Part shown: piece after piece, positions 11,419 through 33,154 of the stretch
How the letters are laid out: the number at the start of each line of letters is the position of its first letter
Numbering within the stretch: position 1 is the first letter of the stretch
Assembly (NCBI GenBank): GCA_016213435.1
Contig: JACRAL010000028.1
Location: 2,196 to 66,195, forward strand
Direction: 5' to 3'
Source of the DNA: Bacteroidota bacterium
Lineage (GTDB): Bacteria; Bacteroidota; Bacteroidia; Palsa-948
DNA length: 64,000 bases
Made by a program: the position numbers and the translations under genes
Notes under the pieces: generated by a model
What the model was told of the DNA's origin: nothing
The model's input: only the letters and a program-made list of their open reading frames with translations
Database searches by the model: none

Positions 11419-11454
11419 AAGCCCCTCCTAAATCCTCCCCGTTAGGGAGGACTT
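11419..11454 (-). promoter_or_regulatory. 36-bp GC-rich element: 5'-UTR hairpin + AGGAGGGG (SD-like) immediately upstream of nuoJ start
   Basis: mRNA sense reads AAGUCCUCCCUAACGGGGAGGAUUUAGGAGGGGCUUUAUAUG. An identical copy lies at 12126-12161 before nuoI. Confidence 0.6.
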
Positions 11455-11502
11455 AATACCATTTTTATTATTTATTATTTTCTTTTTCATTTTGCAGTTG
11501 TG

Positions 11503-11539
11503 CCCCGCTTTCTCCTCCCCAGTGGGGAGGTCGGGGCTC
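11503..11539 (-). repeat. Nested GC-rich hairpin immediately 3' of nuoI stop (GAGCCCCGACCUCCCCACUGGGGAGGAGAAAGCGGGGCAC)
   Basis: Two nested inverted repeats (GCCCCG/CGGGGC and CCTCCCC/GGGGAGG); an intra-operon stem-loop. Confidence 0.5.
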
Positions 11540-12125: not shown

Positions 12126-12161
12126 AGCCCCTCCTAAATCCTCCCCGTTAGGGAGGACTTG
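12126..12161 (-). promoter_or_regulatory. Second identical copy of the 36-bp hairpin + SD-like element upstream of nuoI
   Basis: 36/36 identity with 11419-11454; ends 3 nt before the nuoI AUG. Confidence 0.6.
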
Positions 12162-16273: not shown

Positions 16274-16316
16274 TTAGCCTATCCTAAATCCTTCCCAAAG
16301 GGAAGCATTTTTATTT

Positions 16317-17543: not shown

Positions 17544-20500
17544 ATGAGTAAATACACAGAATATAAAAACCTGAACCTTCCCGAAATAGGAAAGGAAATT
17601 CTTGATCTGTGGGAGAAAAACCACACCTTTGAAAAGAGCGTTACCTCGCGTGAAGGAGCTGAGCCCTTTGTTTTTTATGAAGGACCTCCATCAGCCAACG
17701 GCATGCCCGGCATTCATCACGTGATGGCACGAACCATAAAGGATTTATTCTGCCGTTACCAGACTTTAAAAGGAAAACAGGTAAAACGTAAAGCGGGTTG
17801 GGACACGCACGGGCTTCCGATCGAATTGGCGGTGGAAAAAACCTTAGGCATCACCAAGGAAGACATCGGAAAAAAAATCTCCATTGAAGATTACAACAAG
17901 GCATGCAGGACAGAGGTGATGAAGTATCAGGACAAATGGGAAGAAGTTACCCGTTTGATGGGATATTGGGTGGACATGAAACATCCGTATGTCACTTACG
18001 AAAACAATTACATCGAAAGTGTTTGGTGGCTGCTGAAAAAACTGTACGACAAAAAACTATTATATAAAGGATATACCATTCAGCCGTATTCTCCTGCTGC
18101 GGGAACGGGATTGAGTACGCATGAATTGAACCAACCGGGATGTTACAGGAATGTGAGGGATACGACTGCTGTGGCAATGTTCCGCCTCATCCCCAACCCT
18201 TCTCCGAAGGAGAAGGGAGAAATCCTCTCCTTTGGAGAGGATTTAGGTGAGGCGTATTTTCTTGCGTGGACGACAACTCCTTGGACTCTACCTTCGAATA
18301 CAGCCTTGGCTGTAGGAAAGAACATCAATTATGTTTTGATTGCTACCTTTAATCGTTTTACGTGGAAGAAATGTTTTGTGATTCTCGCGGAGGATTTATT
18401 TGGGAAGTATTTTCAGCGAATTGCAATTATTGGAAATTATACAGAAGAAGAAATTTTCAAAATACAAAACCCGTCTATTGCAGAGGCATTAAACCGCTTA
18501 GACAATCATCCGAAAGAGAAGAGAATTATTAACGGGCACGAATTAATCGGAGTTATTGTCTCAAGATTCACAGGAAAAGATATCGAAGGAATCCACTACG
18601 AACAACTTCTCCCTTTTAAAGCAAATGAAAAAGTGGAGTTGAACGGCAAACTCCTCCCCTTTGGGGAGGCGGGAGGGGCCGTTATTCTTGGAGATTTCGT
18701 TACCACCGAAGACGGAACCGGAATCGTTCACATAGCTCCAAGTTTTGGCGCGGATGACTTTAGAGTTGCGAAACAAAACGGAATTGGTTCGCTTACGCTG
18801 GTTGACAGGCGCGGAAAATTTTTTCCGGAAGTAAGAGATGATGTTTTTCTCTATGGAGACGAGTATGTGAAAGCAGAATATCTCACGGATACAGAAAAGC
18901 AAATTGAATTCCAAAAACAAAAAAAAGTTTTAGAAGCAGCTGGAAAAATTAAAGAACTGAAAGAATATCTAAGCGTTGATGAGCGCATTGTGCTGAAACT
19001 TCAGGAAGAAGGAAAGCTTTTTAAAAAAGAAAAATACGAGCACAGCTATCCTCATTGCTGGCGCACGGACAAACCTATTTTATATTATCCGCTTGACAGT
19101 TGGTTCGTGAAAGTGACTGAGTACAAAGACAGAATGGTAGAACTCAATAAAACCATCAACTGGAAACCGGCACATACAGGTACAGGGCGTTTTGGTGAGT
19201 GGCTGAACAATTTGCAGGATTGGAATTTGTCGCGCTCGCGCTTCTGGGGAATTCCGCTTCCGATCTGGAGAACAGAAGATGGCAAGGAAGAAAAAATTAT
19301 TGGTTCGGTGGATGATTTGAGAAAGGAAGTTAATAAAGCAGTACAGTCTGGTTTTATGAAGGTGTCCCCCTTTGAAGGGAGTGAGGAGGATGTGGATTTA
19401 CACAAACCGTATATCGACAGAGTATTTCTTGTTTCCGATTCAGGGAAAAAAATGACTCGTGAGTCAGATCTGATTGATGTCTGGTTCGATTCAGGCGCAA
19501 TGCCCTATGCTCAATGGCATTATCCGTTCGAAAATAAAGAAATGATTGATTCTCTCCCCTCTCCTGTGGGAGAGGGGTCTGGGGTGAGGCGGACCGGGGC
19601 TGCTTTCCCTGCCGACTTTATTGCAGAAGGAGTTGACCAAACCCGTGGATGGTTTTACACACTTCACGCTATTGCAGCTTTGTGTTTTGATTCGGTCGCT
19701 TATAAAAATGTGCTGAGCAATGGGTTGGTACTTGACAAGAATGGAAACAAGATGAGCAAACGCCTCGGCAATGCCGTTGATCCGTTCTCCACGCTTGAAA
19801 AATATGGTCCCGATGCGGTGCGCTGGTACATGGTCACAAATGCCGATCCTTGGGATAATTTAAAATTTGATTTGGAAGGAGTAGCAGAAAAGCAAAGAAG
19901 TTTTTTCGGAACGCTTTATAATACCTATGCTTTCTTTGCCCTTTATGCGAACATTGACAATTTCTCTTTTAAAGAAAAAGAAATTCCATTAAAAGACAAA
20001 CCCGAAATTGACCGATGGATTTTGTCAGAACTCAATTCGCTGATAAAATCGGTGGATGAAAGTTACAGCAGTTATGAGCCAACAAAAGCAGGCAGAGCGA
20101 TCGAAACTTTTGTGGACGAGCATTTGAGTAATTGGTATGTTCGTTTGTGCAGAAGGAGATTCTGGAAAGGAGAATACACACAGGATAAAATTTCTGCTTA
20201 TCAAACCTTATATCGTTGTCTGGAAGTGGTTGCGCAGCTTTCTTCGCCTATTGCACCTTTCTTCTGCGAGAAATTATTTAAAGACCTGAACGATATAACC
20301 GGAAGACAGAAAGCGGAGAGCGTGCATCTGAGTTTATTTCCAAAGATGGATGAGAGCTCTATTGATAAACCGCTGGAAGAGAGAATGGAAATAGCTCAGA
20401 AAATTTCTTCGATGATTCTTTCTATCCGGAAAAAGGAAAATATCCGTGTTCGTCAGCCACTTACAAAGATTCGAGTTCCGATATTGGATGATTCGTTCAA

Positions 20501-21134
20501 GAAAAAGCTGGAGCTTGTGAAAGATTTGATCCTTTCGGAAGTAAATGTAAAGGAGATTGAATATGTTGGAGAAGACGATGTACAAATCGTGAAAAACCTG
20601 AAGCTGAATTTCAAAACACTAGGTAAGAAATGTGGCAAACACATGAAAGCTGTTCAAGCGCATGCAACCGATCCTATTTATGCAAAACTTATTATCCAAT
20701 CTATTTCAAAAAATGATAGTTACGAAATAAAAATAGAGAACGAAACAATAGAACTTCTTCCTGAAGATGTTGAGATCATTCCGGTTGACATTCCGGGCTG
20801 GAAAGTGGCTAACAGCGGTGCGCTTACGGTCGCACTTGACATCACGCTTACCGAAAAATTAAAGGAGGAAGGAATAGCAAGGGAAATCGTAAATCGCATT
20901 CAGAATCTGCGAAAAGAGAAGAAATTTGAGGTTACAGATAAGATAGAAGTAAGGATAAAAGATCACAAGAAAATAAATTCAGCCATTTTAAATAATTTAG
21001 ATTACATTCGCGCGGAAATTTTGGCAAATACGTTTGAGATCGTCAGCGAGATTAATGGAAACGGCATTGAGATTGAAGTAGATGAAGAGATAAAAACAAT
21101 GGTCGAGATTGACCGCATTAAACAGTTAAACTAA
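17544..21134 (+). CDS. ileS: Isoleucine--tRNA ligase, carrying three in-frame palindromic-element insertions
   Basis: HIGH-type motif 'PSANGMPGIHH', 'WTTTPWTLP', 'WNLSRSRFWG' and KMSKS 'KMSKRLGN'. The 1196-aa length is about 50 aa longer than usual, owing to the GC-rich inserts. Confidence 0.95.
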   Translation: MSKYTEYKNLNLPEIGKEILDLWEKNHTFEKSVTSREGAEPFVFYEGPPSANGMPGIHHVMARTIKDLFCRYQTLKGKQVKRKAGWDTHGLPIELAVEKTLGITKEDIGKKISIEDYNKACRTEVMKYQDKWEEVTRLMGYWVDMKHPYVTYENNYIESVWWLLKKLYDKKLLYKGYTIQPYSPAAGTGLSTHELNQPGCYRNVRDTTAVAMFRLIPNPSPKEKGEILSFGEDLGEAYFLAWTTTPWTLPSNTALAVGKNINYVLIATFNRFTWKKCFVILAEDLFGKYFQRIAIIGNYTEEEIFKIQNPSIAEALNRLDNHPKEKRIINGHELIGVIVSRFTGKDIEGIHYEQLLPFKANEKVELNGKLLPFGEAGGAVILGDFVTTEDGTGIVHIAPSFGADDFRVAKQNGIGSLTLVDRRGKFFPEVRDDVFLYGDEYVKAEYLTDTEKQIEFQKQKKVLEAAGKIKELKEYLSVDERIVLKLQEEGKLFKKEKYEHSYPHCWRTDKPILYYPLDSWFVKVTEYKDRMVELNKTINWKPAHTGTGRFGEWLNNLQDWNLSRSRFWGIPLPIWRTEDGKEEKIIGSVDDLRKEVNKAVQSGFMKVSPFEGSEEDVDLHKPYIDRVFLVSDSGKKMTRESDLIDVWFDSGAMPYAQWHYPFENKEMIDSLPSPVGEGSGVRRTGAAFPADFIAEGVDQTRGWFYTLHAIAALCFDSVAYKNVLSNGLVLDKNGNKMSKRLGNAVDPFSTLEKYGPDAVRWYMVTNADPWDNLKFDLEGVAEKQRSFFGTLYNTYAFFALYANIDNFSFKEKEIPLKDKPEIDRWILSELNSLIKSVDESYSSYEPTKAGRAIETFVDEHLSNWYVRLCRRRFWKGEYTQDKISAYQTLYRCLEVVAQLSSPIAPFFCEKLFKDLNDITGRQKAESVHLSLFPKMDESSIDKPLEERMEIAQKISSMILSIRKKENIRVRQPLTKIRVPILDDSFKKKLELVKDLILSEVNVKEIEYVGEDDVQIVKNLKLNFKTLGKKCGKHMKAVQAHATDPIYAKLIIQSISKNDSYEIKIENETIELLPEDVEIIPVDIPGWKVANSGALTVALDITLTEKLKEEGIAREIVNRIQNLRKEKKFEVTDKIEVRIKDHKKINSAILNNLDYIRAEILANTFEIVSEINGNGIEIEVDEEIKTMVEIDRIKQLN

Positions 21135-21145
21135 TTTTTATCACC

Positions 21146-22042
21146 ATGGCAAAAGCAAAAAAGAAGGCAAAAGCCAAAGCAAAACCGGTTAAAAAGGTTA
21201 AGAAAGCTGCTTCAAAAAAGACAAAGAAAGTAACAGCAAAGAAGGCTGTTAAGAAAAAGGCTGTAAAAAAGAAACCCGTGGCGAAGAAAGCGGCTGCAAA
21301 GAAAAAAAACCTTGCGAAGAAAAAAACTGCAAAAGCGATAAAGAAGAAAGCTGTTAAGAAAGTTGTTGTGAAAAAAGCAACGAAGAAGGCCACTATAAAA
21401 GCAAAGCCTATTTCCAAGAAGGAAGAGAAAAGATTAAAAGCCATTCAGCATGCAATTCCTGTTCTTCCTTTAAAACCAATCCTTGAGGAGAAGCCGGAGA
21501 AAGAAAAAAAGAAAACCAAAGAAGAATTAGCCGAAGAGCGCGAACTGTTGGGAGAAGAAACTTATTCATGGGACAGCGGTACTTTTTCTGACATGAAAAA
21601 TTATGAACCACTTCCTGTATTCAGAAAGCCGGATCCTCCGCAACCAAAATTTAAAGGCAAGCCGGATAAGCGTACTCGTTATTCTGATAAAGAACTGAGT
21701 GAATTCAGAGGGATTATAAATGAGAAAATTGCCGAAGCAGAACGCGATTATGAACTTTTGAAGAACACGCTTGCTCATCGTGGTGAGCATGGCACGGATG
21801 ATACATCCCCCACTTTCAAAGTCTTGGAAGATGGATCGGACGCAATGTCGCGTGAAGAGATTGCTCAGCTTGCATCCCGTCAGGAACGTCATATTCAAAA
21901 TCTTAAGAATGCCCTTATCCGTATTGCAAATAAGACCTATGGAATTTGCCGTGTAACCGGAAAACTCATTCCGAAAGAAAGATTGCGCAGCGTTCCTCAT
22001 GCCACGCTCAGCATAGAAGCTAAACTGACGCAGAACTCTTAA
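21146..22042 (+). CDS. TraR/DksA-family protein with an N-terminal lysine/alanine-rich histone-H1-like tail
   Basis: The N-terminal ~115 aa are AKKA/KKAV repeats. The C-terminus, 'ELSEFRGIINEKIAEAE...YGICRVTGKLIPKERLRSVPHATLSIEAK', matches the DksA/TraR coiled-coil plus zinc-finger-like domain. The gene lies between ileS and lspA, the conserved position of the dksA-like gene. Confidence 0.7.
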   Translation: MAKAKKKAKAKAKPVKKVKKAASKKTKKVTAKKAVKKKAVKKKPVAKKAAAKKKNLAKKKTAKAIKKKAVKKVVVKKATKKATIKAKPISKKEEKRLKAIQHAIPVLPLKPILEEKPEKEKKKTKEELAEERELLGEETYSWDSGTFSDMKNYEPLPVFRKPDPPQPKFKGKPDKRTRYSDKELSEFRGIINEKIAEAERDYELLKNTLAHRGEHGTDDTSPTFKVLEDGSDAMSREEIAQLASRQERHIQNLKNALIRIANKTYGICRVTGKLIPKERLRSVPHATLSIEAKLTQNS

Positions 22043-22122
22043 AAAGTTTACAGTCTATGGTTTACAGTTTACGGTTTAAAACCAACTGTAAACCGTAGAC
22101 AGCAGACAGTAAACCGAATTTT

Positions 22123-22764
22123 GTGAAAAAAGCCGCACTCATCGTTTTTCTCGTTCTTCTGATTGATCAGGTTGTTAAGATATGGATCAAGACGCACATG
22201 ACTTTGGGCGATCAGATACCTGTTATTCAGAACTTATTTTACATACACTTTACTGAAAATTACGGAATGGCTTTCGGGCTGGAACTGGAGGGCAGTTACG
22301 GAAAATTGCTTTTGAGTTTGTTCCGCATCCTTGCGGTGGGCGGAATAGGCTGGTATCTCTACACGCTCGTGAAACAAAAAGCGCACAGCGGTCTCATCTT
22401 CAGCATTTCACTTATTATGGCAGGTGCTATAGGCAATATTCTTGACAGCGCATTTTACGGATTGGTGTTTTCAGAAAGCACCCCGATGGATGTCGCCATG
22501 TTCTTGCCGGCAGAAGGCGGCTATGCGGGTTTCCTGCATGGCGCTGTGGTGGATATGTTTTACTTCAATGTGTATTTTGAACATGTGTTCTGGAGCACAA
22601 CATCATTTCATTTCTCTTTTCCGATCTTTAATATTTCTGATTCTGCAATTACCATTGGGGTAGTTATCATCCTGCTTTTTCAGAAACTATTTTTTAAGAA
22701 GGAGGAACTGGATACCAATAACGGATCAGTTGCGAATGTTACAAATGAAAACGTTGCACCTTAA
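22123..22764 (+). CDS. lspA: Lipoprotein signal peptidase II
   Basis: 'FTENYGMAFG' and 'GNILDS' motifs of signal peptidase II, within a polytopic membrane protein. Confidence 0.85.
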   Translation: MKKAALIVFLVLLIDQVVKIWIKTHMTLGDQIPVIQNLFYIHFTENYGMAFGLELEGSYGKLLLSLFRILAVGGIGWYLYTLVKQKAHSGLIFSISLIMAGAIGNILDSAFYGLVFSESTPMDVAMFLPAEGGYAGFLHGAVVDMFYFNVYFEHVFWSTTSFHFSFPIFNISDSAITIGVVIILLFQKLFFKKEELDTNNGSVANVTNENVAP

Positions 22765-22816
22765 CATCCCCTTTTTCTGATTCGTTATATTCGTAAACAT
22801 TAGTTATTAGTAACCA

Positions 22817-23452
22817 ATGGCGAAGCCAAAGCCAAAATACTACGTAGTCTGGAAAGGAAAAGAGCCGGGTATTTTTGATTCCTGGGATACGTGCAAGAAG
22901 CAAATCCAAAATTTTACAGGGGCACAATACAAATCCTTTAAAACAAAGGAAGCAGCAGAAAGCGCATTTAAATTATCATACAAAGATGCTATCATCTCAC
23001 CCCTCACTCCCCTCTCCACGAGGAGAGGGGAAGAGGGAGAGGTGGTTGGTTATCCCATGCTCGAAAGCATCTCTGTAGATGCCGCTTTTAACGGAAAGGT
23101 AATGGAGTACAAAGGCGTTTACACCAAAACAAAACAAGAACTATTCAAGCTGGGTCCTTTTGAAGATGCAACAAATAATATCGGGGAATTCCTCGCTATC
23201 GTGCATGCCTTGGGTTATCTGAAAAAACAGCACAGCACGGTTCCCGTTTATTCCGACAGTGTTACAGCCATCCACTGGGTGAAAACGCATAAGGCAAACA
23301 CCAAACTAAAAGAAACCCCTGCAAACAAATCTCTTTTCTTTCTTATTGAAAGAGCGGAAAAGTGGTTAAGCCAGAATAAATACCCTAATAAACTCCTCAA
23401 GTGGGAGACAAAAGCATGGGGAGAGAACCCTGCTGACTTTGGCAGGAAGTAA
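22817..23452 (+). CDS. rnhA: Ribonuclease HI with N-terminal RNA/DNA hybrid-binding domain (Cauli_VI-type)
   Basis: N-terminal 'YYVVWKGKEPGIFDSWDTCKKQIQNFTGAQYKSFKTKEAAESAF' hybrid-binding domain, then an RNase H catalytic core (D..E..D..D). A GC-rich palindromic insert lies in the linker. Confidence 0.8.
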   Translation: MAKPKPKYYVVWKGKEPGIFDSWDTCKKQIQNFTGAQYKSFKTKEAAESAFKLSYKDAIISPLTPLSTRRGEEGEVVGYPMLESISVDAAFNGKVMEYKGVYTKTKQELFKLGPFEDATNNIGEFLAIVHALGYLKKQHSTVPVYSDSVTAIHWVKTHKANTKLKETPANKSLFFLIERAEKWLSQNKYPNKLLKWETKAWGENPADFGRK

Positions 23453-23747
23453 TGGAGAATCCTCCAAATTTTAAAGATGAAACACCCGCAGGAGAATGAG
23501 CTGTTAGACCTCTCTCGTTTAGAAAACAACCTCATCATTTTTCTTGTACAAGTAAAATGATTTGCTTTCCTTTTTAAAATATCTCGTTGCCTGCCTGATT
23601 CTTGGCAAGGCTATGTTTCCAAATAGGAGTGAGTTCTCTGACATTTGGCAAGGTATTTTTTTTCTCAGCATGGGCTATTCCTAATAGTGTGTATGGTGAA
23701 ATGAAGAAAAAATAATCCCGAAATAGAATCTTATAATTTTCTGATCA

Positions 23748-23779
23748 AGCCCCGCAATCCTGCGGGGCTTTTCCTTTCC
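23748..23779 (+). terminator. Rho-independent terminator-like hairpin (GCCCCGCA-ATCC-TGCGGGGC + T-tract)
   Basis: Perfect 8-bp GC stem followed by TTTTCCTTT, within a 770-bp ORF-free region. Confidence 0.5.
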
Positions 23780-24218
23780 CAAAAGTAATTAGCACAAGTA
23801 CGCACCGTTGCCCATATTACCCCGATATGTTGCCCCACTATGCGAACATCTACGCGCTCATGGGAAATACCTCATAGTGCACCCCGATCCCCTATATGGG
23901 GCTTGTTTCTAAAACTTATTAACAAGTGGGCTAATAGTGGACTAATTTACAAATAAAAAAGCCGTGAAACGTAGATTTTACCTATGAAACACGACTTTAT
24001 AGTTAGCGGACTTGATGTTTCCTATATCGAACGGTTTATGTCTGATTTACAGAAGGTCATAGAATACCGTAATACGATAGGCGGATAATGCTGTGTGCGC
24101 CTTTTAATGGTTGATATATCATTTTTACAAAGGTATAAAGTTCCTTTTTCTTTCGGTCAATGTTGCACATGGGGGCTATAGATAGGACAAAGGTAGGATT
24201 TCATAGGCAATTCGCCAT

Positions 24219-24590
24219 TTAATTCGTATTTACAGTCACATCATATTCATTCTGCCTGAAACGCTCTTTCACTATTACTGTTATTTTCCCTTTTACCTGT
24301 CCACCTTTCTGTTGGCTGTAACCTTTTGCAAAAATAGTATAAGTGTCCGGATGCAGGTTGTCAAAATATGCTTGCCCGATTGCGTCTGACCCCTGCTGTT
24401 TATCAAATCGAGTTGGTGGAACGGCAGAAGTTGTGTCATTTCCGCGCTCAAGATAGACAGAGGCTTGCTCCACAGAGTACCCATTATATTTTACAGTAAC
24501 TAAAATGCTACCATTGCCTTCTTCTTTTTTACAAGATGCAATAAAAATAATTGATAATAATAAAATCAAAATATGCCTTAGTAGTTTCAT
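24219..24590 (-). CDS. Hypothetical lipoprotein (carboxypeptidase-regulatory-like beta-sandwich?)
   Basis: Signal peptide with 'ASC' lipobox; 123 aa. Confidence 0.5.
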   Translation of the reverse strand: MKLLRHILILLLSIIFIASCKKEEGNGSILVTVKYNGYSVEQASVYLERGNDTTSAVPPTRFDKQQGSDAIGQAYFDNLHPDTYTIFAKGYSQQKGGQVKGKITVIVKERFRQNEYDVTVNTN

Positions 24591-24601
24591 TGTGACTGTT
24601 T

Positions 24602-25390
24602 TTAAATTCTAATAGTCCCGCCAATAAAGATAAAAGGTTTTCTTTCAGGAATAAAATAATAAATACCGCAGTCTATTTGCCAATTTTGCTTTGGCGTAAA
24701 AGTTATACCGGAATCAACAGAATAGTTATGGGTTAGACTGCCTGAGTTATTATACCTGTAAGACACTTCAGCGAATTGTCTTAAATCACCAACTAACTTG
24801 TAGTCAAAACTGACGGTGGAAAATAACTCTGTCTGCTTTAACATCGGATTGACTGAAAAGGAACTTATACCTCCAGTATATCCCACTCCAAATTTTTTCA
24901 TTACCTCCCATTCGGCATTGAGAAGAAGTCCGCCATTTAAAACCCGAAAGGTATCTTGGAAAAAATTTGTGGTTCTAATCAATGGCATAATTGCTAAAGC
25001 AAAATTGCCCGAATCATTTCCTGTAATGTTGTACTTATAACGTAAAGTAAAATCTTCAAAATAACTATGCTTGGGAACAGAACTCATTTCCGAAAATCTG
25101 TTTTTGTAACAGCCTGAAATTAATTCAATATCCATTTTTTTAGTAATTCCAACTTTAACATTAAGAAATCCGATACCAAAAGTAGAAAAGGTTTCTTTTA
25201 ATTGTGTCTCCTTCGTATAATTGATTAAATCAAGTTCAAACATTATATGCTTTTTGTCTACCGTAATGGGCGATTCTGTCTGATGCGGGCGATCAGGACT
25301 TAATTCCCTAAGTTTTTTATTATTTATAGATTGGGCAAACAAAAAAAAAGAATTTGACAATATGAAAACCGAAATAATTATTTTTTGCAT
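24602..25390 (-). CDS. Putative outer-membrane beta-barrel 'transporter' family protein (MetA-pathway-like, PF13557-like)
   Basis: Signal peptide, an N-terminal 'SPDRPHQTESP' motif and an alternating beta-strand pattern. Start chosen at the internal Met (MQKIII...). Confidence 0.45.
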   Translation of the reverse strand: MQKIIISVFILSNSFFLFAQSINNKKLRELSPDRPHQTESPITVDKKHIMFELDLINYTKETQLKETFSTFGIGFLNVKVGITKKMDIELISGCYKNRFSEMSSVPKHSYFEDFTLRYKYNITGNDSGNFALAIMPLIRTTNFFQDTFRVLNGGLLLNAEWEVMKKFGVGYTGGISSFSVNPMLKQTELFSTVSFDYKLVGDLRQFAEVSYRYNNSGSLTHNYSVDSGITFTPKQNWQIDCGIYYFIPERKPFIFIGGTIRI

Positions 25391-25570
25391 GACATATTTT
25401 AGATAATCTGAAGTCCGTTTTTTTGTATGGCAATTCATAAAATATAAGTAACGACTATAAAGATAATCAGTGCATAGATTGCTATTACACCAATTAAAAG
25501 TAAAATAGCGTACTTCTTTATATCATTGTCTCCACGCATTATAAATGCCATTCAAAATTAACTATATTTT

Positions 25571-26995
25571 TTATCTCCATCCGCCTCCCAATGCTTTGTA
25601 TAGGTTTACAGTCGCTATGAGTTTATTTTTACTTGCGTCTATGAGTTCAAGTTGCGTTTCCAATGAATTTTGCTGTGCCAATAAAACTTCCAAATAAGTT
25701 GCCCTTCCTGTTTTATATAATTCCTTAGAACTTTCAACTGAGAGCATCAATACACTACTTTGTTCTTTTTTCAGAGCATTTATTTCCTGAAAATATTTAA
25801 TGTTTGAAAGTCCATTTACTACTTCTGCATATCCATTCAAAATAGTTTCCTGATAATAATACATTGCAGTTAACTGATTTGCTTTTGCAGTATTGAATTG
25901 TGCTTTCAAAGCATTTCTGTTAATCAGTGGTGCAACCAAATTACCTAAAGCTGAATACGCTAATGATGTTGGAGTCATAAACAAAAACTGTGGATTGAAT
26001 GCTTGAAAACCATACCCTGCTGTGATATTCAGATTAGGAAAAAATGCTGCTTTTGCAGATTTTAAATCGAATTTACTTGCTTGAACTTGAAACTCTGCCT
26101 CGCGAATATCAGGTCGGTTTCTTAATAATTGAGAAGGAATGCCCGCAGTAAACTGTTGGGTAATCTCATTAAACAGAACTTCTTTAGTTCGTTGTATTGG
26201 TTGCGGAAACCGACCTAACAGAAAATTAATTCTATTTTCTAACTCTATTATTTGTCTTAATGTTTCCTTCTCTAATGCTTGTGAATTTATCAGCGCTGCC
26301 TTAAACTGTTGAACTGCTATTTCAGTTGTTTTTCCTGTTTCCATTTGAAGTTTTACAACATCCAAAGCATCTTCTTGACCTTGTATCGTTTGCCGAACAA
26401 TTTCTAATTCATTATCCAACCCCAATAACTCATAATAGGAAATAGCCACATCAGCCACCAAATTTGAAATGACAAAATTTCTTCCTTCTATACTTGATAG
26501 GTATTGTGCAATAGCAGATTTACGTTGGTTCCTCAACTTTCCCCAAATGTCAATTTCCCAACTGGCTTGTAAGCCCAAATAATAATCTTGCAGAGGATTG
26601 GGAACAATTTTACCGGGTTCATATTCAGTTGTTGTGTTGCCTGCATAGTCGGGAGTATATTTTGCATATTTATCAACTCCAACGGAACCGTTAATGCCAA
26701 CCATAGGTAGTAGTTGCCCATTAGCGAATTTTATTCCTGAACGGGCAATTTCAATTCGCTGTAAAGCTATTTGTAAATCAATATTGTTTACAAGAGCTGT
26801 GTCTATCAGTTTCACCAAAATCGTATCAGCAAAATATTTTCGCCAATTGATATTCGCTATATTGTTAGAATCATTTTGATTTTGGAAACTTGTCGGGACA
26901 TCTTTTTTTGAAATTGACAAGTTTGTATCAAGTGTTTTGCAACCGCTTACGATTAGCAACAAAAACGCGATGTATATGATATTTCTTTTCCTCAT
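25571..26995 (-). CDS. RND efflux outer-membrane factor lipoprotein (TolC/NodT family)
   Basis: Lipobox 'VSGC' and two OEP repeats; 474 aa. Confidence 0.85.
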   Translation of the reverse strand: MRKRNIIYIAFLLLIVSGCKTLDTNLSISKKDVPTSFQNQNDSNNIANINWRKYFADTILVKLIDTALVNNIDLQIALQRIEIARSGIKFANGQLLPMVGINGSVGVDKYAKYTPDYAGNTTTEYEPGKIVPNPLQDYYLGLQASWEIDIWGKLRNQRKSAIAQYLSSIEGRNFVISNLVADVAISYYELLGLDNELEIVRQTIQGQEDALDVVKLQMETGKTTEIAVQQFKAALINSQALEKETLRQIIELENRINFLLGRFPQPIQRTKEVLFNEITQQFTAGIPSQLLRNRPDIREAEFQVQASKFDLKSAKAAFFPNLNITAGYGFQAFNPQFLFMTPTSLAYSALGNLVAPLINRNALKAQFNTAKANQLTAMYYYQETILNGYAEVVNGLSNIKYFQEINALKKEQSSVLMLSVESSKELYKTGRATYLEVLLAQQNSLETQLELIDASKNKLIATVNLYKALGGGWR

Positions 26996-27007
26996 TGTAA
27001 TTTGTTC

Positions 27008-30000
27008 CTAAATGATTTCTGAAAATGGTTTTTCTTCTTTTCTGTTTCTGCTGAATTTTTCTGCAAGTGTGGCGAACACTACATACAAGCCCGGAATAAT
27101 AATTACTCCAAACACGGTTCCAAATAACATACCGCCTGCTGCTGCTGTTCCGATGGTGCTATTGCCAACTGCACCCGCACCGCTTGCAAACATTAGCGGA
27201 AGTAATCCCGCAATGAAAGCAAATGATGTCATTAAGATTGGGCGCAAACGGACTTTTGCTCCTTCAATGGCGGCTTGTAATGGTGTTTTCCCTTGACTGT
27301 GTCGTTGTGCCGCAAACTCCACGATAAGAATTGCATTTTTACCTAACAATCCAATAAGCATAATCATCGCTATTTGTGCGTAAATATTATTTTCTAAACC
27401 AAATGCACTCAACAATAAAAACGCTCCAAAAATTCCTGTTGGTAATGAAAGTATAACTGGCATTGGCAATAAAAAACTTTCGTATTGTGCCGCTAAAAGT
27501 AAATACACAAACAGCAAACAAATTATGAAAATGATAATTGCTTCGTTGCCACTGTTTGCTTCATCTAATGAAATTCCCAACCAGTCCACATCATAACCTC
27601 TCGGCAATTTTTCTTTTGCTGTTTGCTTAATGATTTTTAAAACTTCTCCACTGCTTACACCTTGTTTTCCTTCACCATTCATTTGAGCACAGAGGTATAA
27701 GTTGTAGCGGTCAATTTGGTCAACTCCATACGATTTTTCAACGGTCATAAAAGCCGACATAGGAACCATTTCGCCTTTGTCATTCTTTACATACAATTTC
27801 AATAAATCTTCGGGTAATGCCCTATATTGTGGCAATGCCTGAACCATTACTTTATACATTTGTCCGAAACGGATAAAATTAGTTGCATAATCGCTTCCTA
27901 AAAGTGTTTGCAAAGAACTCATTGCGTTGTTTACCGTTACACCTTTTTGAGCCGCCTTGTCCATATCAACTCGTAAAGTGTATTGCGGAAAACTTGCATT
28001 GAAAAAACTGTAAGCACTGGCAATTTTCGGGTTCGCTTTTAAGTCACTAATGAATTGTGTTACTACACTTTCCATTTTTTTTTGGTCGCCACTTCCCGTT
28101 TTATCTAATACAACCATTTCAAAACCACTTGCGTTTCCGTAACCGGGAACAGCAGGCGGTGGAAAAAATTCAATATCAGCGTCTTTGATGTATTTGGTTT
28201 TTTCTTCCAAAGTTTTAATCACATCGTCCACAGAAACCTTTCGTTCACTCCACGGTTTTAAATTAATCAGTGCCGTTCCGTAAATTGAACCTGTTCCATC
28301 AGAAAGAATATTTGTTCCTGCAAGTGTTGATACACTTTGTATTCCTTCTAAATTTTGTGCTTCTTTCTGAATAGCGTTTACTACTTCTTTTGTTCGTTCC
28401 AAAGTCGCACCTTGTGGAGTTATTACGCTTGCATAAAAAGTTCCCTGGTCTTCGTTTGGAATAAAACCTGAAGGCAGAATTCTTCCCAAAATCCCTGTGC
28501 CGATTAAGAATAAAAGCAATACACCAAAAGTGATAAATCTGCGATTAAGAATTTTTTCCAACAGCTTTTTATAGCGTTCTTCCAAGCCATTATACCAATT
28601 ATTAAAACCGTCAAGAAGTTTTGAAAACCAATTTTTCTTTTTCGTTACTCCATAATGATTTTTTAAAATAATCGCACACAAAGCAGGTGTTAAAGTGAGT
28701 GCCACAACACCTGACAGCACAATGGCAATAGCCATTGTCAAAGAAAATTGTCGGTAAAAAATGCCCGAAGGACCCGACATAAAAGCAACCGGAATAAATA
28801 CGGCAGACATTACCAAAGTAATAGCGATGATTGCACCGCTGATTTCTTTCATGGCTTGTTCGGTTGCTTTTTTCGCACCAATTTTTGAATGTTCCATTTT
28901 CGCATGAACCGCTTCAACAACCACAATGGCATTGTCCACCACAATTCCAATTGCCAGTACCAATGCAAAAAGTGTAATGAGGTTTAATGAAAATCCTAAA
29001 AACTGCATAAAGAAGAAAGTCCCAATGAGCGAAACAGGAACTGCTATTGCAGGAATTAAAGTGGAACGCCAATCCTGCAAAAAAATAAATACCACAAGCG
29101 CAACCAAAAGAAACGCTTCCAAAAATGTTTTGATTACTTCATGCACCGAAGCATCTAAAAACTGACTTACATCATAACTCAATTCGTAGTCCATTCCCTT
29201 TAGAAAACTTCTTTCTTTTAATTCTTCCATTTTCGCTTTAACGGCTGCAATTACTTCACTTGCATTACTGCCCGGTGATTGTTTGAGCATAATAGCAGCA
29301 CAGGTTTTACCATTGAATTTTGCTTCCACGTCAAAATAGGTTGTGCCAAATTCTACCTCTGCCACATCTTTAATTCGCAAAATTTTTCCTGTGGTTTCCG
29401 ATTTAAGCGGAATGTTTTCGTATTGCTCTTTGGTGTTGAATTTCCCCGTGTATTTTACTGTGTATTGTAATGGCTGTCCCTGACCTTTTCTTTCAGAACT
29501 CTCACCGATTTTTCCGGGTGCTGCTTCCACATTTTGTTCATCTAATGCAGTTAATACATCTTCGGTTGAAATGTTGTAAGTAAGCATCTTGTCGGGCTTC
29601 AACCAAATACGCATAGCGTATTCCTTCACTCCCATAATATCAATAAAACCAACTCCTTTAATTCTTTTCAGTTCTGCAAGAACATTCAGGTCAGTGAAAT
29701 TGTAAAGGAATTTTTCGTCAAGCGTTGTGTCTGAACTGTAAATATTCAGATAGGTGAGCATAGCGTTGTTTACTTTGGTTATTTTAATTCCACTCTTTAC
29801 CAAATCAGGGGGAAGCTGTGGAATTACTTCAGCAACACGATTCTGAACACTCATGGCAGCTACATCGGGATTTGTTCCAACCTCAAAAATTATTTTGATT
29901 AACCCTACACCGTCATTTCCTGCGTCACTAAAAATATATTTTGCACCTGCCACACCGTTGATTGCTTTTTCAAGAGGCACAATGGCTGTTTTCACAACTG

Positions 30001-30166
30001 TTTCGGCATTTCCACCGGGATATTCAACCGTTACATTTACTTCCGGTGGGGTTATACTTGGAAATTGTTCTACAGGCAAACGGAACAATGTTAATATTCC
30101 AAGTAAAAATATTATCAGCGATATTACTATCGCCATAATTGGGCGATGAATTATTTTTCCTGCCAT
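27008..30166 (-). CDS. RND-family multidrug efflux permease (AcrB/HAE1-like)
   Basis: 1052 aa with 12 transmembrane helices and large periplasmic loops in an AcrB-type conservation pattern. Confidence 0.9.
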   Translation of the reverse strand: MAGKIIHRPIMAIVISLIIFLLGILTLFRLPVEQFPSITPPEVNVTVEYPGGNAETVVKTAIVPLEKAINGVAGAKYIFSDAGNDGVGLIKIIFEVGTNPDVAAMSVQNRVAEVIPQLPPDLVKSGIKITKVNNAMLTYLNIYSSDTTLDEKFLYNFTDLNVLAELKRIKGVGFIDIMGVKEYAMRIWLKPDKMLTYNISTEDVLTALDEQNVEAAPGKIGESSERKGQGQPLQYTVKYTGKFNTKEQYENIPLKSETTGKILRIKDVAEVEFGTTYFDVEAKFNGKTCAAIMLKQSPGSNASEVIAAVKAKMEELKERSFLKGMDYELSYDVSQFLDASVHEVIKTFLEAFLLVALVVFIFLQDWRSTLIPAIAVPVSLIGTFFFMQFLGFSLNLITLFALVLAIGIVVDNAIVVVEAVHAKMEHSKIGAKKATEQAMKEISGAIIAITLVMSAVFIPVAFMSGPSGIFYRQFSLTMAIAIVLSGVVALTLTPALCAIILKNHYGVTKKKNWFSKLLDGFNNWYNGLEERYKKLLEKILNRRFITFGVLLLFLIGTGILGRILPSGFIPNEDQGTFYASVITPQGATLERTKEVVNAIQKEAQNLEGIQSVSTLAGTNILSDGTGSIYGTALINLKPWSERKVSVDDVIKTLEEKTKYIKDADIEFFPPPAVPGYGNASGFEMVVLDKTGSGDQKKMESVVTQFISDLKANPKIASAYSFFNASFPQYTLRVDMDKAAQKGVTVNNAMSSLQTLLGSDYATNFIRFGQMYKVMVQALPQYRALPEDLLKLYVKNDKGEMVPMSAFMTVEKSYGVDQIDRYNLYLCAQMNGEGKQGVSSGEVLKIIKQTAKEKLPRGYDVDWLGISLDEANSGNEAIIIFIICLLFVYLLLAAQYESFLLPMPVILSLPTGIFGAFLLLSAFGLENNIYAQIAMIMLIGLLGKNAILIVEFAAQRHSQGKTPLQAAIEGAKVRLRPILMTSFAFIAGLLPLMFASGAGAVGNSTIGTAAAGGMLFGTVFGVIIIPGLYVVFATLAEKFSRNRKEEKPFSEII

Positions 30167-30177
30167 GTTTTCAATGT

Positions 30178-31329
30178 TTAAGGGTTAATAATTTGAGAAA
30201 ACATAATCGTTTCAGGCATTATATTATCGCCATCTTTTACTTTTTGTACGCCCTCATAAATAATCCTTTCATTTGGTGAAAGCCCTGAACTGATAACATA
30301 CAATTGTAGTAAACGAAGTGAAGGGGTAACTTTGCGTTGCTGCACCTTACCCTCTTTATCCACAACAAAAACATAAATATTTTCCTGAACCTCAAAAGTT
30401 GATTTCTGAGGAATAAGCATTGCGTTTTTCAATTCTGTTTTCACCAATATTTTACCACTGCTTCCGTGTTTCAAAACTTGTTCGGGATTCGGAAATTTCG
30501 CTCTGAAAGCAATGTTGCCTGTACTTTTGTCAAATTCGCTTTCGGTAGTTTCAATCAAGCCTTTGTGATTATATAAACTTCCGTTTGCCAATACCAACGA
30601 AACTTCTTTTGATTTTCCTTGCTGTTTTGAAAGAGTATAATCTAAATAATCTTTTTCAGAAACATTGAAGTATGCAAATACTTCTTTGTTATTGGAAATA
30701 ACGGTGAGCAAAGTTCCCTCTTCAACCAAACTGCCTGTTTTGTTTGGAATGCGGTTTATGATGCCGTCAAATGGGGCTTTAATTTCTGTAAAAGAAAGAT
30801 TGAGGATGGCTTGCGCCTCATCTGATTGGGCTTCTTCTACCTTTGCCTTTGCAGCATCCACTTTCGTTTCCAACATATCAAGTTCGGTTTTAGAAACAAT
30901 TTTCTTGTCCAGCAGTTTTTTTGTGTTCTCCAAATCAATTTCCGTTGATTTTAAATCAGCCAAAGCACTTTTCAACCCGGCTTTTGCCTTTAGCAAATCT
31001 TGTTCGTATTGCTTGCTGCTAATTGTGAATAGCGTTTGCCCTTGTTTCACTATTTGCCCTTCGTCCACGTAAATATTTTCTATGAATCCTTTAATACGTG
31101 TTCTTATCTCTACGTTTTGGAGCGCATTTATTTCAGCGACATATTCGTTTTGATAAGTGGTATCCATGATGAGAGGACTAATTACCTGAAACTTTTCAGG
31201 CGTTTCCTTTTTACTATCTGTTGAGCAAGCTGATAGAAATATCATAGCAGAAATGCTCAATTGCAATGCGATTTTCCTCATTGAATTGAAAGAATTTAAA
31301 ATGAAAAATGAATGATGGGCAAAACCCAA
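30178..31329 (-). CDS. RND efflux membrane fusion protein (AcrA/HlyD family)
   Basis: Lipoprotein signal, coiled-coil hairpin and beta-barrel domains; first gene of the MFP-RND-OMF operon. Confidence 0.85.
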   Translation of the reverse strand: MGFAHHSFFILNSFNSMRKIALQLSISAMIFLSACSTDSKKETPEKFQVISPLIMDTTYQNEYVAEINALQNVEIRTRIKGFIENIYVDEGQIVKQGQTLFTISSKQYEQDLLKAKAGLKSALADLKSTEIDLENTKKLLDKKIVSKTELDMLETKVDAAKAKVEEAQSDEAQAILNLSFTEIKAPFDGIINRIPNKTGSLVEEGTLLTVISNNKEVFAYFNVSEKDYLDYTLSKQQGKSKEVSLVLANGSLYNHKGLIETTESEFDKSTGNIAFRAKFPNPEQVLKHGSSGKILVKTELKNAMLIPQKSTFEVQENIYVFVVDKEGKVQQRKVTPSLRLLQLYVISSGLSPNERIIYEGVQKVKDGDNIMPETIMFSQIINP

Positions 31330-31375
31330 GCGCTGTTAAGACCTGTTAGGATCAAAACATGAATTAAAGAAAGAA

Positions 31376-31810
31376 TTAAGCCTTAGGTGGAGGGGGTACT
31401 ACATCGGAGCAAAATTGCCCAATGATTTCTTCATTTTTTATAGTATGCATTAGTTTCTTTTCAACATATGGTGCAACTATAAAAACAGTGGTTGGCTCAT
31501 TGTAAAATGAGAATATTACGTCCATATCAACAGGCGCGCCTTTGTCATCATCATCCTGTTCATCAGACTCCGGAAAAAGATTGTCTATATGAAGTATTTG
31601 TTCACAAATGATTTCGCTAATGCTTTCCATATCATTTACCGATAAATCCTCCGGGATAGAATCTAAATCTGCATCAGGAGGATCTACGCTAATATTGAAT
31701 ACATGAAGCGCAAATAAAAAGCAGAGGATTTTAGAAATAATATGTGTGCGAATAAAATTCATCGGACGTGAAGGTACTATTTTTCTTGAAAAACCTATAA
31801 TCCAATGCAA
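31376..31810 (-). CDS. Hypothetical acidic secreted protein
   Basis: ORF with a signal-peptide-like internal start (MNFIRTHIISKILCFLFALHV) and an acidic body; no homology recognised. Confidence 0.35.
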   Translation of the reverse strand: MHWIIGFSRKIVPSRPMNFIRTHIISKILCFLFALHVFNISVDPPDADLDSIPEDLSVNDMESISEIICEQILHIDNLFPESDEQDDDDKGAPVDMDVIFSFYNEPTTVFIVAPYVEKKLMHTIKNEEIIGQFCSDVVPPPPKA

Positions 31811-31969
31811 AACCCTATAAGGGGTGCGTTTTACCTATGTTTAACTTTTCAACATCTCTAAAAACCTTAAAATCAGCAAGGATTAGGGTGAATTTAAAAT
31901 AATTATGGTAATATATTTGGTCATATTAGAAAAAATGTTTTCCTTTGTCGCGGATAATAAATAATACTT

Positions 31970-33016
31970 ATGACAGCATCCGAAATACAAATTAATCCCA
32001 AAATGGTAGCCCTTGGCCGTGAATCACGCGGTCTCTCTCAAACAGACCTTTCAGGCAGGTTAAATACCACTCAGGGGTTCATCAGCCGAGTTGAAACGGA
32101 TATGAAGTCCATGTCAAAAGACACATTAGAAAGGTTGAGCAAGATTCTGAAATATCCCATTGATTTTTTCTATCAGGAAGGCGAAGCGTTTCTGCCCATG
32201 AGTTTGAACTTTCGCAAGCGCGACCATGTGAACGCAAAAGTATTGATGCCGTTTGAAGCGCAATGCAATTTATACCGCCTCAATATTGAAATGCTTTCAC
32301 AAAAATTAAAATTCCCTGCGCTGAATATTCCTGACTTGGATGTAAAAAAAATTGGCTCGGAAGAACAAGTTGCAAAACAGCTTCGCAAGTTTTGGAAAAT
32401 TCCAAAAGGACAAATTGAAAATTTCACTGAACTTTTAGAAGCAAATGGAATCATCATTATTTCATTTGACTTCGGAACAGAACGAATTGATAGCAGAACA
32501 ATTCTTACAAAGGACAAGCATCCAATTATAGTTGTAAATAAAAATCACCTTGCGGACAGACAGCGTTTCAGTTTGGCGCACGAGCTTGGGCATTTAGTGA
32601 TGCACTCACATACGCTTCCTTCGCATGACAGAGATATTTCACACGAGGCAAATATGTTTGCCGCAGGTTTCCTTTTGCCTGAAAGCGAAGTGAGAAAAGA
32701 TTTTGAGAAAGGAATTACCATTGCTTTGCTTGCTGAACTAAAAAAGAAATGGAAAGTTTCAATGATTGCGCTTTTATACCGCGCATTTGACTTGGGATTT
32801 TTTACTGAGAATCAAAAAAAATATATGCTTGCTCAGTTCAATCAAATGAATATACGCAGGCGCGAGCCGATTGAATTGGATTTTCCGAAAGAGAAACCGC
32901 ATTTGCTCCGCGACCTGATTACAAAATATAAAAACGCTCATAAATTTTCAGCAAAAGAGTTAGCAGCGAGCTTTCATCTCGAACTGGAGGAGTTTATGAG
33001 CAAATATGGAGAGTAA
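31970..33016 (+). CDS. XRE-family HTH regulator fused to ImmA/IrrE-family zinc metallopeptidase
   Basis: N-terminal HTH_XRE ('LSQTDLSGRLNTTQGFISRVE'); a 'HELGHLVMH' HEXXH motif sits in a COG2856-like domain. Confidence 0.8.
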   Translation: MTASEIQINPKMVALGRESRGLSQTDLSGRLNTTQGFISRVETDMKSMSKDTLERLSKILKYPIDFFYQEGEAFLPMSLNFRKRDHVNAKVLMPFEAQCNLYRLNIEMLSQKLKFPALNIPDLDVKKIGSEEQVAKQLRKFWKIPKGQIENFTELLEANGIIIISFDFGTERIDSRTILTKDKHPIIVVNKNHLADRQRFSLAHELGHLVMHSHTLPSHDRDISHEANMFAAGFLLPESEVRKDFEKGITIALLAELKKKWKVSMIALLYRAFDLGFFTENQKKYMLAQFNQMNIRRREPIELDFPKEKPHLLRDLITKYKNAHKFSAKELAASFHLELEEFMSKYGE

Positions 33017-33154
33017 AATATCGTGAAATGATTCCGGGACGATTGAAAATATTTTGCATTGACTGTGGAGAAGCATGGAAAAGCATGGAGAAGCGCGGGG
33101 AGATTCCGGGAAGGATTCTGATTAAAACATTTATTTACCGATAAAACATTTGCT

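Follow-up and report, generated by a model that had tools for sequence, protein, structure and literature searches.

A BoxC/TM-like palindromic repeat in the place of the RNase HI linker of a Bacteroidota bacterium, and its possible relation to DUF559 nuclease genes

The DNA analyzed here, called the window throughout, is a stretch of 64,000 nucleotides (nt) from a metagenome-assembled Bacteroidota bacterium (assembly GCA_016213435.1, contig JACRAL010000028.1). It carries rnhA, the gene of ribonuclease HI (RNase HI), and within this gene lies a short, G+C-rich palindromic element that is read in frame. As judged from alignments with orthologues, this element has very probably displaced the native linker between the two domains of the enzyme, with the length of the linker being kept. 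The element and its host gene have the following parts, where triads are the base triplets predicted for a triplex and aa stands for amino acids.

22817 to 23452, forward strand: rnhA, encoding RNase HI of 211 aa, with a hybrid-binding domain, an element-encoded linker, and an RNase H domain (from Pfam, alignment, and structural model).
22994 to 23045, forward strand: TM/BoxC-like palindromic triplex-motif element of 52 nt, encoding residues 60-76/77, ISPLTPLSTRRGEEGEV.
22996 to 23032, reverse strand: purine-motif triplex unit of the rnhA element, TTCCCCTCTC ctcgtg GAGAGGGGAG t GAGGGGTGAG, with 10/10 triads.
23009 to 23042, forward strand: second triplex unit on the same hairpin, CCCCTCTCC acga GGAGAGGGG aag AGGGAGAGG, with 8/9 triads.

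In the open reading frame (ORF) at 22817-23452, Pfam detects Cauli_VI (PF01693) at residues 7-49 and RNase_H (PF00075) at residues 103-173. The homologue counts given below refer to 120 listed proteins of 8000 found, the top ones being 209-211 aa long; the closest of those listed is labeled 'MAG: ribonuclease H family protein [Bacteroidetes bacterium]'. Residues D88, E124, D147, and D207 do not vary in the alignment and presumably correspond to the DEDD catalytic set of RNase H. In an alignment-based AlphaFold model, both domains are confident and pLDDT falls below 50 only at residues 60-78, so that the peptide encoded by the element is predicted to be disordered. From its sequence, the gene looks intact. 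The initial annotation had placed the element in frame and exactly between the hybrid-binding and catalytic domains, which agrees with the Pfam result and with the ORF, which reads ISPLTPLSTRRGEEGEV at this place. It had also described the host as an essential housekeeping gene; this is appropriate for ileS, where related copies are found, and not for rnhA, as RNase HI is dispensable in E. coli.

The boundaries of the element are apparent from a DNA alignment with three syntenic orthologous loci, which have the gene order ileS, dksA-like, lspA, rnhA. Homology extends to position 22993 and resumes at 23046; the 52 nt in between (22994-23045) face 49 nt of native linker and are longer by 3 nt, or one codon. 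At the protein level, the window segment AIISPLTPLSTRRGEEGEVVGY is aligned with a native linker of the same length that is well conserved, FIGKDxFESELxxEQLAKIGK. From the anchor YKSF to the anchor SxxVDAA, the window protein has a spacing of 42 aa; of the 115 homologues in which both anchors occur, 83 have 41 aa. The nearest homologue, P0002, has a native linker (FIGKDVCESELTSEQIAKIGK) and is 90% identical to the window protein outside of it. Consequently, what had been annotated as an insertion is a replacement instead. Conservation of the linker peptide in orthologues, which had been considered as the observation that would speak against an acquired element, is found in none of the other 119 listed homologues, and the peptide is lineage-specific. 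The length of the RNase HI linker looks constrained, and the near-equal size of the lost and gained segments would reflect selection on this length.

The sequence at 22995-23045, tctcacccctcactcccctctccacgaggagaggggaagagggagaggtgg, is read directly from the window just as it had been quoted, including its exact stem. Its G+C content is 63%, against 40% for the whole window. The stem is formed by 9 base pairs (bp) between CCCCTCTCC at 23009-23017 and GGAGAGGGG at 23022-23030, which enclose the loop ACGA. When folded as single-stranded DNA, the element reaches -20.1 kcal/mol (z = -4.05), an energy that covers the hairpin only, as ViennaRNA does not include triplex energetics. The arrangement CCCCTCTCC N2-8 GGAGAGGGG occurs at three sites of the window (19556, 23009, and 58005) and in none of 100 dinucleotide shuffles, and CTCACCCC is found 3-5 nt off the stem in all three copies, the ileS copy being inverted. 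These common features bear out the proposed kinship of the rnhA element with the copies at 19551 and 57991. In the rnhA copy, a third-strand block is present on both sides of the hairpin, CTCACCCC on the left (at 22996-23003 on the forward strand, where it is the outer block of the reverse-strand unit) and AGGGAGAGG on the right. This two-sided, 'palindromic TM' form is also present in several other genomes. A pyrimidine-type RNA triplex in the rnhA mRNA was considered and rejected, since the 5' block TCTCACCCC has two mismatches relative to the required CCTCTCCCC.

A repeat class with this architecture has been described in other bacteria. BoxC repeats and the potential intrastrand triplex (PIT) elements were reportedly treated by Bachellier et al. 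in the 1990s and by Hoyne, Maher et al. in 2000; to our knowledge, the origin, spread, and function of the BoxC/PIT/TM repeats have not been known since the 1990s. The E. coli BoxC repeat was re-described as PIT and, later, as 'TMECO' (Holder et al. 2015, PMC4666352). TMECO follows the pattern CCCTCNCCC N3-6 GGGNGAGGG N3 GGGNGAGGG: a hairpin with an additional purine block, which is the mirror image of the purine stem. All 23 copies in E. coli K-12 are intergenic (PMC4666352). Triplex formation by single-stranded TMECO is documented in the literature by circular dichroism and nuclear magnetic resonance.

On their G-rich strand, the window copies read CCCCTCTCC N4 GGAGAGGGG N3 GGGGTGAGG. The order of blocks on one strand is the expected one, with a pyrimidine stem, a loop of 3-6 nt, a purine stem, a short loop, and a second purine block. 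This third block mirrors the stem with one A changed to T, and the predicted triads are G.G:C, A.A:T, and T.A:T, of which 10/10, 9/10, and 9/10 are allowed in the main copies at 22996-23032, 19555-19589, and 57993-58027, respectively. Apart from a register shift of one base, the ileS copy (CCCCTCTCCTGTGGGAGAGGGGTCTGGGGTGAGG) is nearly identical to TMECO no. 1 (CCCTCTCCCTGTGGGAGAGGGCCGGGGTGAGGGC), and a TMECO pattern shifted by one base matches at 19556, 22995 (the rnhA element, to 23030), and 57993. In addition, the three blocks vary together: GGAGAAGGG is found with GGGATGAGG, AGGGGAGGG with GGGTGGGGA, and GGGAAGGA with AGGATGGG. Duplex pairing could not maintain a mirror repeat, and this covariation therefore argues for a constraint on the relation among the three blocks. 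Among 384 perfect 9-bp pyrimidine/purine hairpins from all loci, 171 have 9/9 mirror triads, whereas the background mode is 4; most of the 171 were picked by the search pattern, and about 30 variant copies were not.

With good confidence, the rnhA segment can be taken as a putative member of the BoxC/TM family. By sequence comparison, the window copies form a sister subfamily within the wider G/C-rich TM class and are not strict TMECO. The repeat is not a described RNA family: at the gathering threshold, Rfam finds only a tRNA in the whole window, and with the element at E ≤ 10 it finds only generic miRNA-type hairpins far under threshold. Literature searches by stem sequence returned only eukaryotic papers on G-quadruplexes and triplexes, and those for in-frame palindromic elements in Bacteroidetes returned nothing specific. 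The repeat class is known, and what is apparently new is its context, in frame and linker-replacing, in Bacteroidota. The initial annotation was right in that a palindromic family is dispersed in the window; this family is not a novelty of the Bacteroidota, being known from E. coli and cyanobacteria as BoxC/PIT/TM, and its third, mirror block had been missed.

The remaining units of the window were located by our own ITxF-like scan for triplex motifs, which is modelled on the finder of Holder et al. and yields 14 motifs in the window compared with a mean of 1.4 in 30 Markov shuffles. About 10 units are present, five of them in frame within genes (four sites: rnhA, ileS twice, and a TMTC-like gene) and five intergenic. 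Those outside rnhA include the following.

19551 to 19592, forward strand: insertion in ileS of 42 nt (14 codons), TCTCTCCCCTCTCC tgtg GGAGAGGGG tct GGGGTGAGG CGG, encoding SLPSPVGEGSGVRR (from orthologue alignment).
18183 to 18254, both strands: variant inverted pair in ileS, 72 nt, with CCCTTCTCC/GGAGAAGGG/GGGATGAGG on the reverse and TCCTCTCC/GGAGAGGA/AGGTGAGG on the forward strand.
57993 to 58027, reverse strand: copy in a gene for a TMTC-like/TPR membrane protein (56518-58446, reverse strand), encoding SPLSFGRGVGGEV.
11422 to 11451, reverse strand: intergenic unit of another subfamily in a spacer of the nuo cluster, TCCTCCCT aac GGGGAGGA ttt AGGAGGGG.
3557 to 3584 (reverse strand), 3663 to 3690 (forward strand), and 16278 to 16307 (reverse strand): further intergenic units from the ITxF-like scan.

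The insertion at 19551-19592 is a clean net gain, in frame, between YPFENKEMID and FPADF of the ileS product. No target-site duplication is seen at this insertion, the flanks being ...atgattgat and accggggct.... The second ileS site is occupied by a double hairpin of the variant subfamily (scan motifs 18185-18218 on the reverse and 18222-18252 on the forward strand), which stands in place of a variable loop of 51-57 nt between AMF and YFLAWTTTPW, with a net gain of 15 to 21 nt. In the TMTC-like gene, a loop that connects predicted membrane segments has a net gain of 33 nt (11 codons). A degenerate version occupies this position in one homologue, and a second homologue has two peptides that resemble the repeat at other positions. 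The net change in length is a multiple of three at each of the four intragenic sites, and five of the six reading frames of a single repeat unit are free of stop codons. The repeat occurs in unrelated genes, in three frames, and in both orientations. Moreover, the repeat is also present in the ileS gene of a relative (locus L006, 3713-3750), very close to the place that corresponds to 19551-19592. Its DNA orientation is unchanged there, with an offset and a different reading frame (PPLSGGRGVGGEV), and closer relatives have no repeat at this place. This suggests, from the sequences compared, that the ileS site has been hit recurrently as a permissive site.

The intergenic units belong to other stem subfamilies and are mostly found in short spacers of the nuo cluster. 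An identical copy of the unit at 11422-11451 lies 706 nt away, at 12128-12157, and a further intergenic triplex unit is present at 11502-11535. The third block AGGAGGGG resembles a Shine-Dalgarno sequence. Between nuo genes of a relative, there are small ORFs that belong to the PDDEXK_3 and 23S_rRNA_IVP families (L006:311-727; ENA contig of P0035); these may be other small selfish ORFs that occupy nuo spacers as the triplex units of the window do. Another inverted repeat, CCCTAAAGGGAG ... CTCCCTTTAGGG, is intergenic at 58745-58790. The RNase HI homologue P0025 (L129:1259-1960) has a paired element that closely resembles this repeat and adds 22 aa in frame after LKKQ in the RNase H domain; the corresponding position of P0044 is taken by another paired unit, which is G-only.

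The repeat is widely distributed in bacteria, and the BoxC/PIT/TM class is abundant not only in E. coli and cyanobacteria but also in many other phyla. When one genome per species was scanned for CTCACCCC N2-6 CCCCTCTCC N3-5 GGAGAGGGG, a pattern of 26 fixed bases, at least 120 matching stretches were found, with a chance expectation estimated at well below 1. They come from Bacteroidota, Gamma-, Beta-, and Alphaproteobacteria, Chloroflexota, Planctomycetota, Acidobacteriota, Cyanobacteria, Gemmatimonadota, Nitrospirota, Myxococcota, Patescibacteria, and others. The copies have sharp boundaries and unrelated flanks, and near-identical sequences of 35 nt are found in different phyla. Among the matches listed, other low-GC genomes have about every second copy inside a long ORF. 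The density of G/C-rich units varies strongly among relatives: the 64 kb of the window contain about 10, whereas three related genomes, each covered over about 20 kb, have 0, 1, and 1. In a Bacteroidales metagenome-assembled genome (L010:60-250), at least three copies of a 78-nt unit are arranged head to tail with identical spacers, as a tandem array that is not CRISPR-like. The exact 26-base pattern is frequent in viral or proviral contigs of IMG/VR as well, at no fewer than 120 loci (L133-L252), two of which (L136 and L237) have in common a different sequence between two units, A/T-rich and 340 nt long.

The history of the RNase HI linker appears to involve more than one event. In a neighbour-joining tree built without the linker, from about 190 residues and not robust in its details, the window protein is the sister of P0002, P0051 of P0035, and P0056 of P0067, and the sisters have native linkers. 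A single ancestral replacement for the window protein, P0010, P0051, and P0056 was rejected, because each of them sits beside native-linker relatives in the tree. This placement implies at least three gains, or else transfers of alleles. All replaced alleles end in V-G-[Y/S/F]-P, where native ones have K-I-G-K-P. As a native linker, once replaced, cannot be regained by reversion, the replaced allele would have to have arisen several times or passed from one lineage to another. P0010 carries a decayed yet alignable copy of the window element with a common right junction, GrTGGTTGGTTmTCCCAT. As had been claimed, the rnhA element is an independent case relative to ileS; in the P0010 lineage, however, the replaced linker has a decayed homologue.

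In P0051 and P0056 (335 aa), the RNase HI linker is replaced by a segment of 149 aa. This segment is, in frame, a DUF559 domain (PF04480), which is Vsr-like and belongs to the PD-(D/E)XK superfamily; the nearest solved structure is 3HRL, an 'endonuclease-like protein'. In both proteins, it is flanked by inverted triplex units of another stem subfamily, which in P0051 (L130:3001-4008) read CCCATCCC ag TTCCTTCCC aaa GGGAAGGGG ... TCCTTCCC ttt GGGAAGGA ttt AGGATGGG. Two RNase HI lineages that are not sisters thus have a TM-DUF559-TM unit at one and the same position of the linker, and the pattern of linker replacement resembles what homing would be expected to produce. Apart from these linker replacements, two homologues bear G-rich paired units of other kinds, placed in a loop of the catalytic domain.

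The association is not restricted to RNase HI. A DUF559 ORF is present in 9 of the 120 listed genome loci that were selected by the repeat alone. Wherever sequence is available, triplex units are found on both sides of each of these ORFs, the nearest at 5-78 nt and those on the far side at up to about 150 nt, and in most cases the third block points outward, as in an inverted pair. Pfam detects DUF559 nested in frame in LeuRS (two genomes, two sites), MetRS, chorismate synthase (AroC), RNase HI, and a Type ISP restriction enzyme; in a further case, the in-frame domain stands at the C-terminal end of a PurQ-like amidotransferase (GATase). In the MetRS case, which is from a betaproteobacterium, the domain lies between the anticodon-binding and tRNA-binding domains.

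L054:5725-7998, L018:5682-8000, L011:1777-4515, L096:2-871, L046:2007-5570, and L028:3815-5407: loci with a nested DUF559 domain (from Pfam).

The nuclease motif DF...E-x-DG..H is kept in all nested DUF559 domains, and Pfam detects in the nested proteins only DUF559, the related MTES_1575 model, and host domains. A similar neighborhood exists in E. coli K-12, where TMECO no. 9 (1,351,204-1,351,239) lies 168 nt from ycjD, a gene annotated as DUF559. A repeat-like hairpin spans the stop codon of ycjD, whose product ends in ...PPVTLSL (L132:11204-11430; K-12 1,351,204-1,351,430), and a duplicated fragment of the 3' end of ycjD, gaatattctccagcaccgtctcc, lies between the gene and TMECO no. 9. Given 23 sites in 4.6 Mb, the probability of such a proximity by chance was estimated at about 0.002; restricted to intergenic DNA, the estimate is about 0.02. 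In the literature searched, nothing ties DUF559 or ycjD to BoxC/TM repeats, which is no proof that the link is unpublished.

These observations are probably best explained if the rnhA copy is a solo, two-sided BoxC/PIT/TM repeat that is tolerated and has replaced the linker. It is likely to be a passive passenger, and it would represent selfish or neutral DNA without an adaptive role. Most likely, it is a solo remnant or a MITE-like copy of a DUF559-bearing element, which would imply mobilization by DUF559; that the rnhA copy owes its origin to DUF559 is nevertheless put forward only tentatively. With the same reserve, the repeats may be regarded as the termini and solo remnants of a pan-bacterial selfish element, whose only gene would be the DUF559 (Vsr-like PD-(D/E)XK) nuclease and which would insert in frame into, or overwrite, permissive loops or linkers in housekeeping genes. 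The repeat unit consists of a 9-bp pyrimidine/purine hairpin followed by a purine block that could pair as a third strand. In related genomes, inverted pairs of such units would be the termini of a small DUF559 unit that lies in frame in housekeeping genes, and the host would then make, within its own protein, either the nuclease or only a Pro/Gly-rich peptide. A TM-DUF559-TM unit may have landed in the rnhA linker and lost its ORF by recombination between the two hairpins, which are direct repeats; this loss would leave an outer block, a hairpin, and an outer block, as is seen. Alternatively, a solo copy may have been mobilized in trans. Perhaps the repeat could persist because five of its six frames are stop-free, with a predicted peptide rich in Pro, Ser, Gly, Glu, and Arg that could serve as a flexible tether, and because the length of the linker is preserved.

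Several points weigh against this explanation. The near-equal length of the replaced and replacing segments would need two events plus selection, or else a one-step mechanism. The strict TMECO consensus matches no window copy, whereas it does match the E. coli control locus. The stem of the units around the DUF559 segment of P0051 (TCCTTCCC) differs from that of the window copy, so that they are not its direct parent, and in 2 of 10 DUF559 units the third block points inward. No DUF559 gene is present in the 64-kb window. Furthermore, none is detected, even at E = 10, in the 120 listed repeat-bearing loci of IMG/VR (1.04 Mb), which makes the association one-way: this DUF559 subfamily is TM-flanked, and most TMs are solo. 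As most copies are solo, they could spread without DUF559. A word-index protein search with the DUF559 segment gave 33 matches, mostly free-standing proteins of 120-160 aa, which speaks against a one-to-one link, although this search says little about how frequently DUF559 is nested in frame. Finally, Holder et al. found neither a stable triplex in double-stranded DNA or in vivo nor a link to mobile elements (PMC4666352).

Part of this evidence would be accommodated if the repeat spread without any enzyme. In such a scenario, replication comes to a halt at a triplex or hairpin, and its repair, by template switching or by gene conversion from another copy in the genome, overwrites a segment of about the same length; DUF559 is then no more than a frequent passenger or neighbor. 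Holder et al. tied TM sites to local indels and rearrangements (PMC4666352), and Maher's group observed polymerase blockage in vitro. Replacements rather than insertions at two of the four intragenic window sites, the lack of target-site duplication, the solo state of more than 90% of copies together with 0 of 120 listed viral-contig loci having DUF559, and the contrast in TM density between related genomes all point in the same direction. By contrast, enzyme-free spread leaves unexplained the two-sided bracketing of DUF559 ORFs in a preferred inverted orientation, the near-identical 35-nt sequences across phyla, and the presence of TM-DUF559-TM at one linker position in two non-sister lineages, and we regard it as rather unlikely. 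Selection of the mRNA hairpin or of the Pro/Gly-rich peptide, for instance for a translational pause, mRNA stability, or linker flexibility, could account for a linker within one residue of the native length, for a hairpin that is intact in the window and decayed in P0010, and for an rnhA that otherwise appears functional from sequence and model. Such an exaptation is improbable, given that the repeat is found in unrelated genes, in three frames, in both orientations, and in intergenic spacers, that PIT elements showed no promoter or terminator activity in earlier work, and that the decay in P0010 indicates that the hairpin is dispensable there.

A short, GC-rich, multi-copy palindrome with variable loops also recalls a conventional REP/RAYT element or a transposase-derived MITE. 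Nevertheless, a GTAG or CGTC tag is found at neither end (the ends are CTCACCCC and GGGGTGAG), the clean ileS insertion has no target-site duplication, and a mirror third block with three-way covariation is not a feature of REP or MITE sequences. In the 25 listed of 66 Pfam families matched by window ORFs, there is a resolvase and no RAYT-type or IS-type transposase, and this origin appears very improbable. Since the genome was assembled from a metagenome, and assemblies are known to go wrong at repeats, one could also suspect an artefact of assembly or binning, for instance a chimera joined at the element. Such an artefact is hardly credible: the reading frame is kept across the rnhA element, both flanks are collinear with the three orthologous loci, and a decayed homologue of the junction occurs in an unrelated sample (P0010). 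In addition, a Logan assembly of run SRR12113407 agrees with window positions 20993-33452 (12,460 nt) with a single mismatch, the reads being probably the same.

The explanation of the rnhA copy as a tolerated, solo BoxC/PIT/TM repeat can be placed among known systems. In common with BoxC/PIT/TMECO, the window units have a 9-nt C-rich stem, a loop of 3-6 nt, a 9-nt G-rich stem, a loop of about 3 nt, and a 9-nt G-rich mirror block; the sequences CCCTCTCC, TGTGGGAGAGGG, and GGGGTGAGG are common to both. In both, loops are variable and stems conserved, units are single or in inverted pairs, copy number is uneven between relatives, and there is neither a target-site duplication nor a known transposase. 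Unlike TMECO, the window register is one base off (CCCCTCTCC/GGAGAGGGG/GGGGTGAGG), the host is a Bacteroidota genome with 40% GC, and half of the window units lie in genes, in frame, whereas those of E. coli K-12 are always intergenic. The link to DUF559 is absent from Holder et al.

With homing endonuclease genes and inteins, TM-DUF559-TM shares a nuclease ORF that lies in frame in conserved genes and recurs at one site in non-sister lineages. Unlike in inteins, Pfam detects no Hint splicing domain and no LAGLIDADG, HNH, or GIY-YIG domain, and the nuclease domain would stay in the host protein; unlike homing genes, the window rnhA copy has no ORF at all. We know of no work that has established DUF559 (Vsr-like) as a homing family. 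Like REP/RAYT sequences and MITEs, the repeats are short, abundant, non-autonomous palindromes, with many solo copies and few ORF-bearing units. They differ in lacking a GTAG/CGTC tag and a signature of terminal inverted repeats with target duplication, in having a mirror block, and in the absence of RAYT from the Pfam families listed above.

A further parallel is provided by the Rickettsia palindromic elements (RPEs), which are described as palindromes in frame in unrelated, often housekeeping genes, translated and expected at permissive surface positions (Ogata et al. 2000/2002, via PMC10969869). Like RPEs, the window repeat lies in frame in protein genes and adds a predicted peptide segment. 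RPEs are about 100-150 bp long, restricted to Rickettsia, and net insertions (PMC10969869), while the window element measures 35-52 nt (72 nt for the pair) and occurs in many phyla. As far as descriptions can be compared, the window element also differs in its triplex-type third block and in replacing host sequence at two of four sites.

Other features of the window were observed in passing. The DksA/TraR-type zinc-finger protein encoded at 21146-22042 has a Lys/Ala-rich, histone-H1-like N-terminal extension of about 100 residues, and its length is kept in relatives (269-303 aa). The spacer that separates the dksA-like gene from lspA contains, at 22046-22114, a long imperfect palindrome of GTTTACAG/GTTTACGG units. 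At 23748-23769, some 300 nt downstream from rnhA, there is a GC-rich hairpin that does not form part of a triplex unit, AGCCCCGC aatcct GCGGGGCT; in L002, a hairpin that resembles it (AGCCCTGC agagat GCAGGGCT) is found upstream from ileS. The largest ORF of the window (46558-52944) has 2128 aa, and none of the listed Pfam families can be assigned to it. Lastly, a tRNA gene on the reverse strand (56353-56440) lies between an ORF that ends at 56512 and the 3' end of the TMTC-like gene (56518).

As to its meaning, the window locus indicates that these repeats can be translated as predicted parts of core enzymes, as is the case for the Rickettsia elements, and that they are able to overwrite a linker and not merely to lengthen it. 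The inverted repeat pairs that bracket DUF559 ORFs, including the one beside ycjD in E. coli K-12, provide a testable candidate for the origin of the family. In this way, an old descriptive puzzle becomes a question that can be asked in a model organism, namely whether YcjD/DUF559 binds, cuts, or moves BoxC DNA. There are also consequences for annotation, as recurrent database peptides of the type 'PSPxGEGxGVR / PLSxxRGxGGEV' are derived from the repeat, and unusually long aminoacyl-tRNA synthetases with DUF559 would be element insertions and not new architectures. If the proposed relation to DUF559 is true, these elements would be an intein-less counterpart of homing elements, and the RNase HI linker of the window would be one decayed footprint of them.

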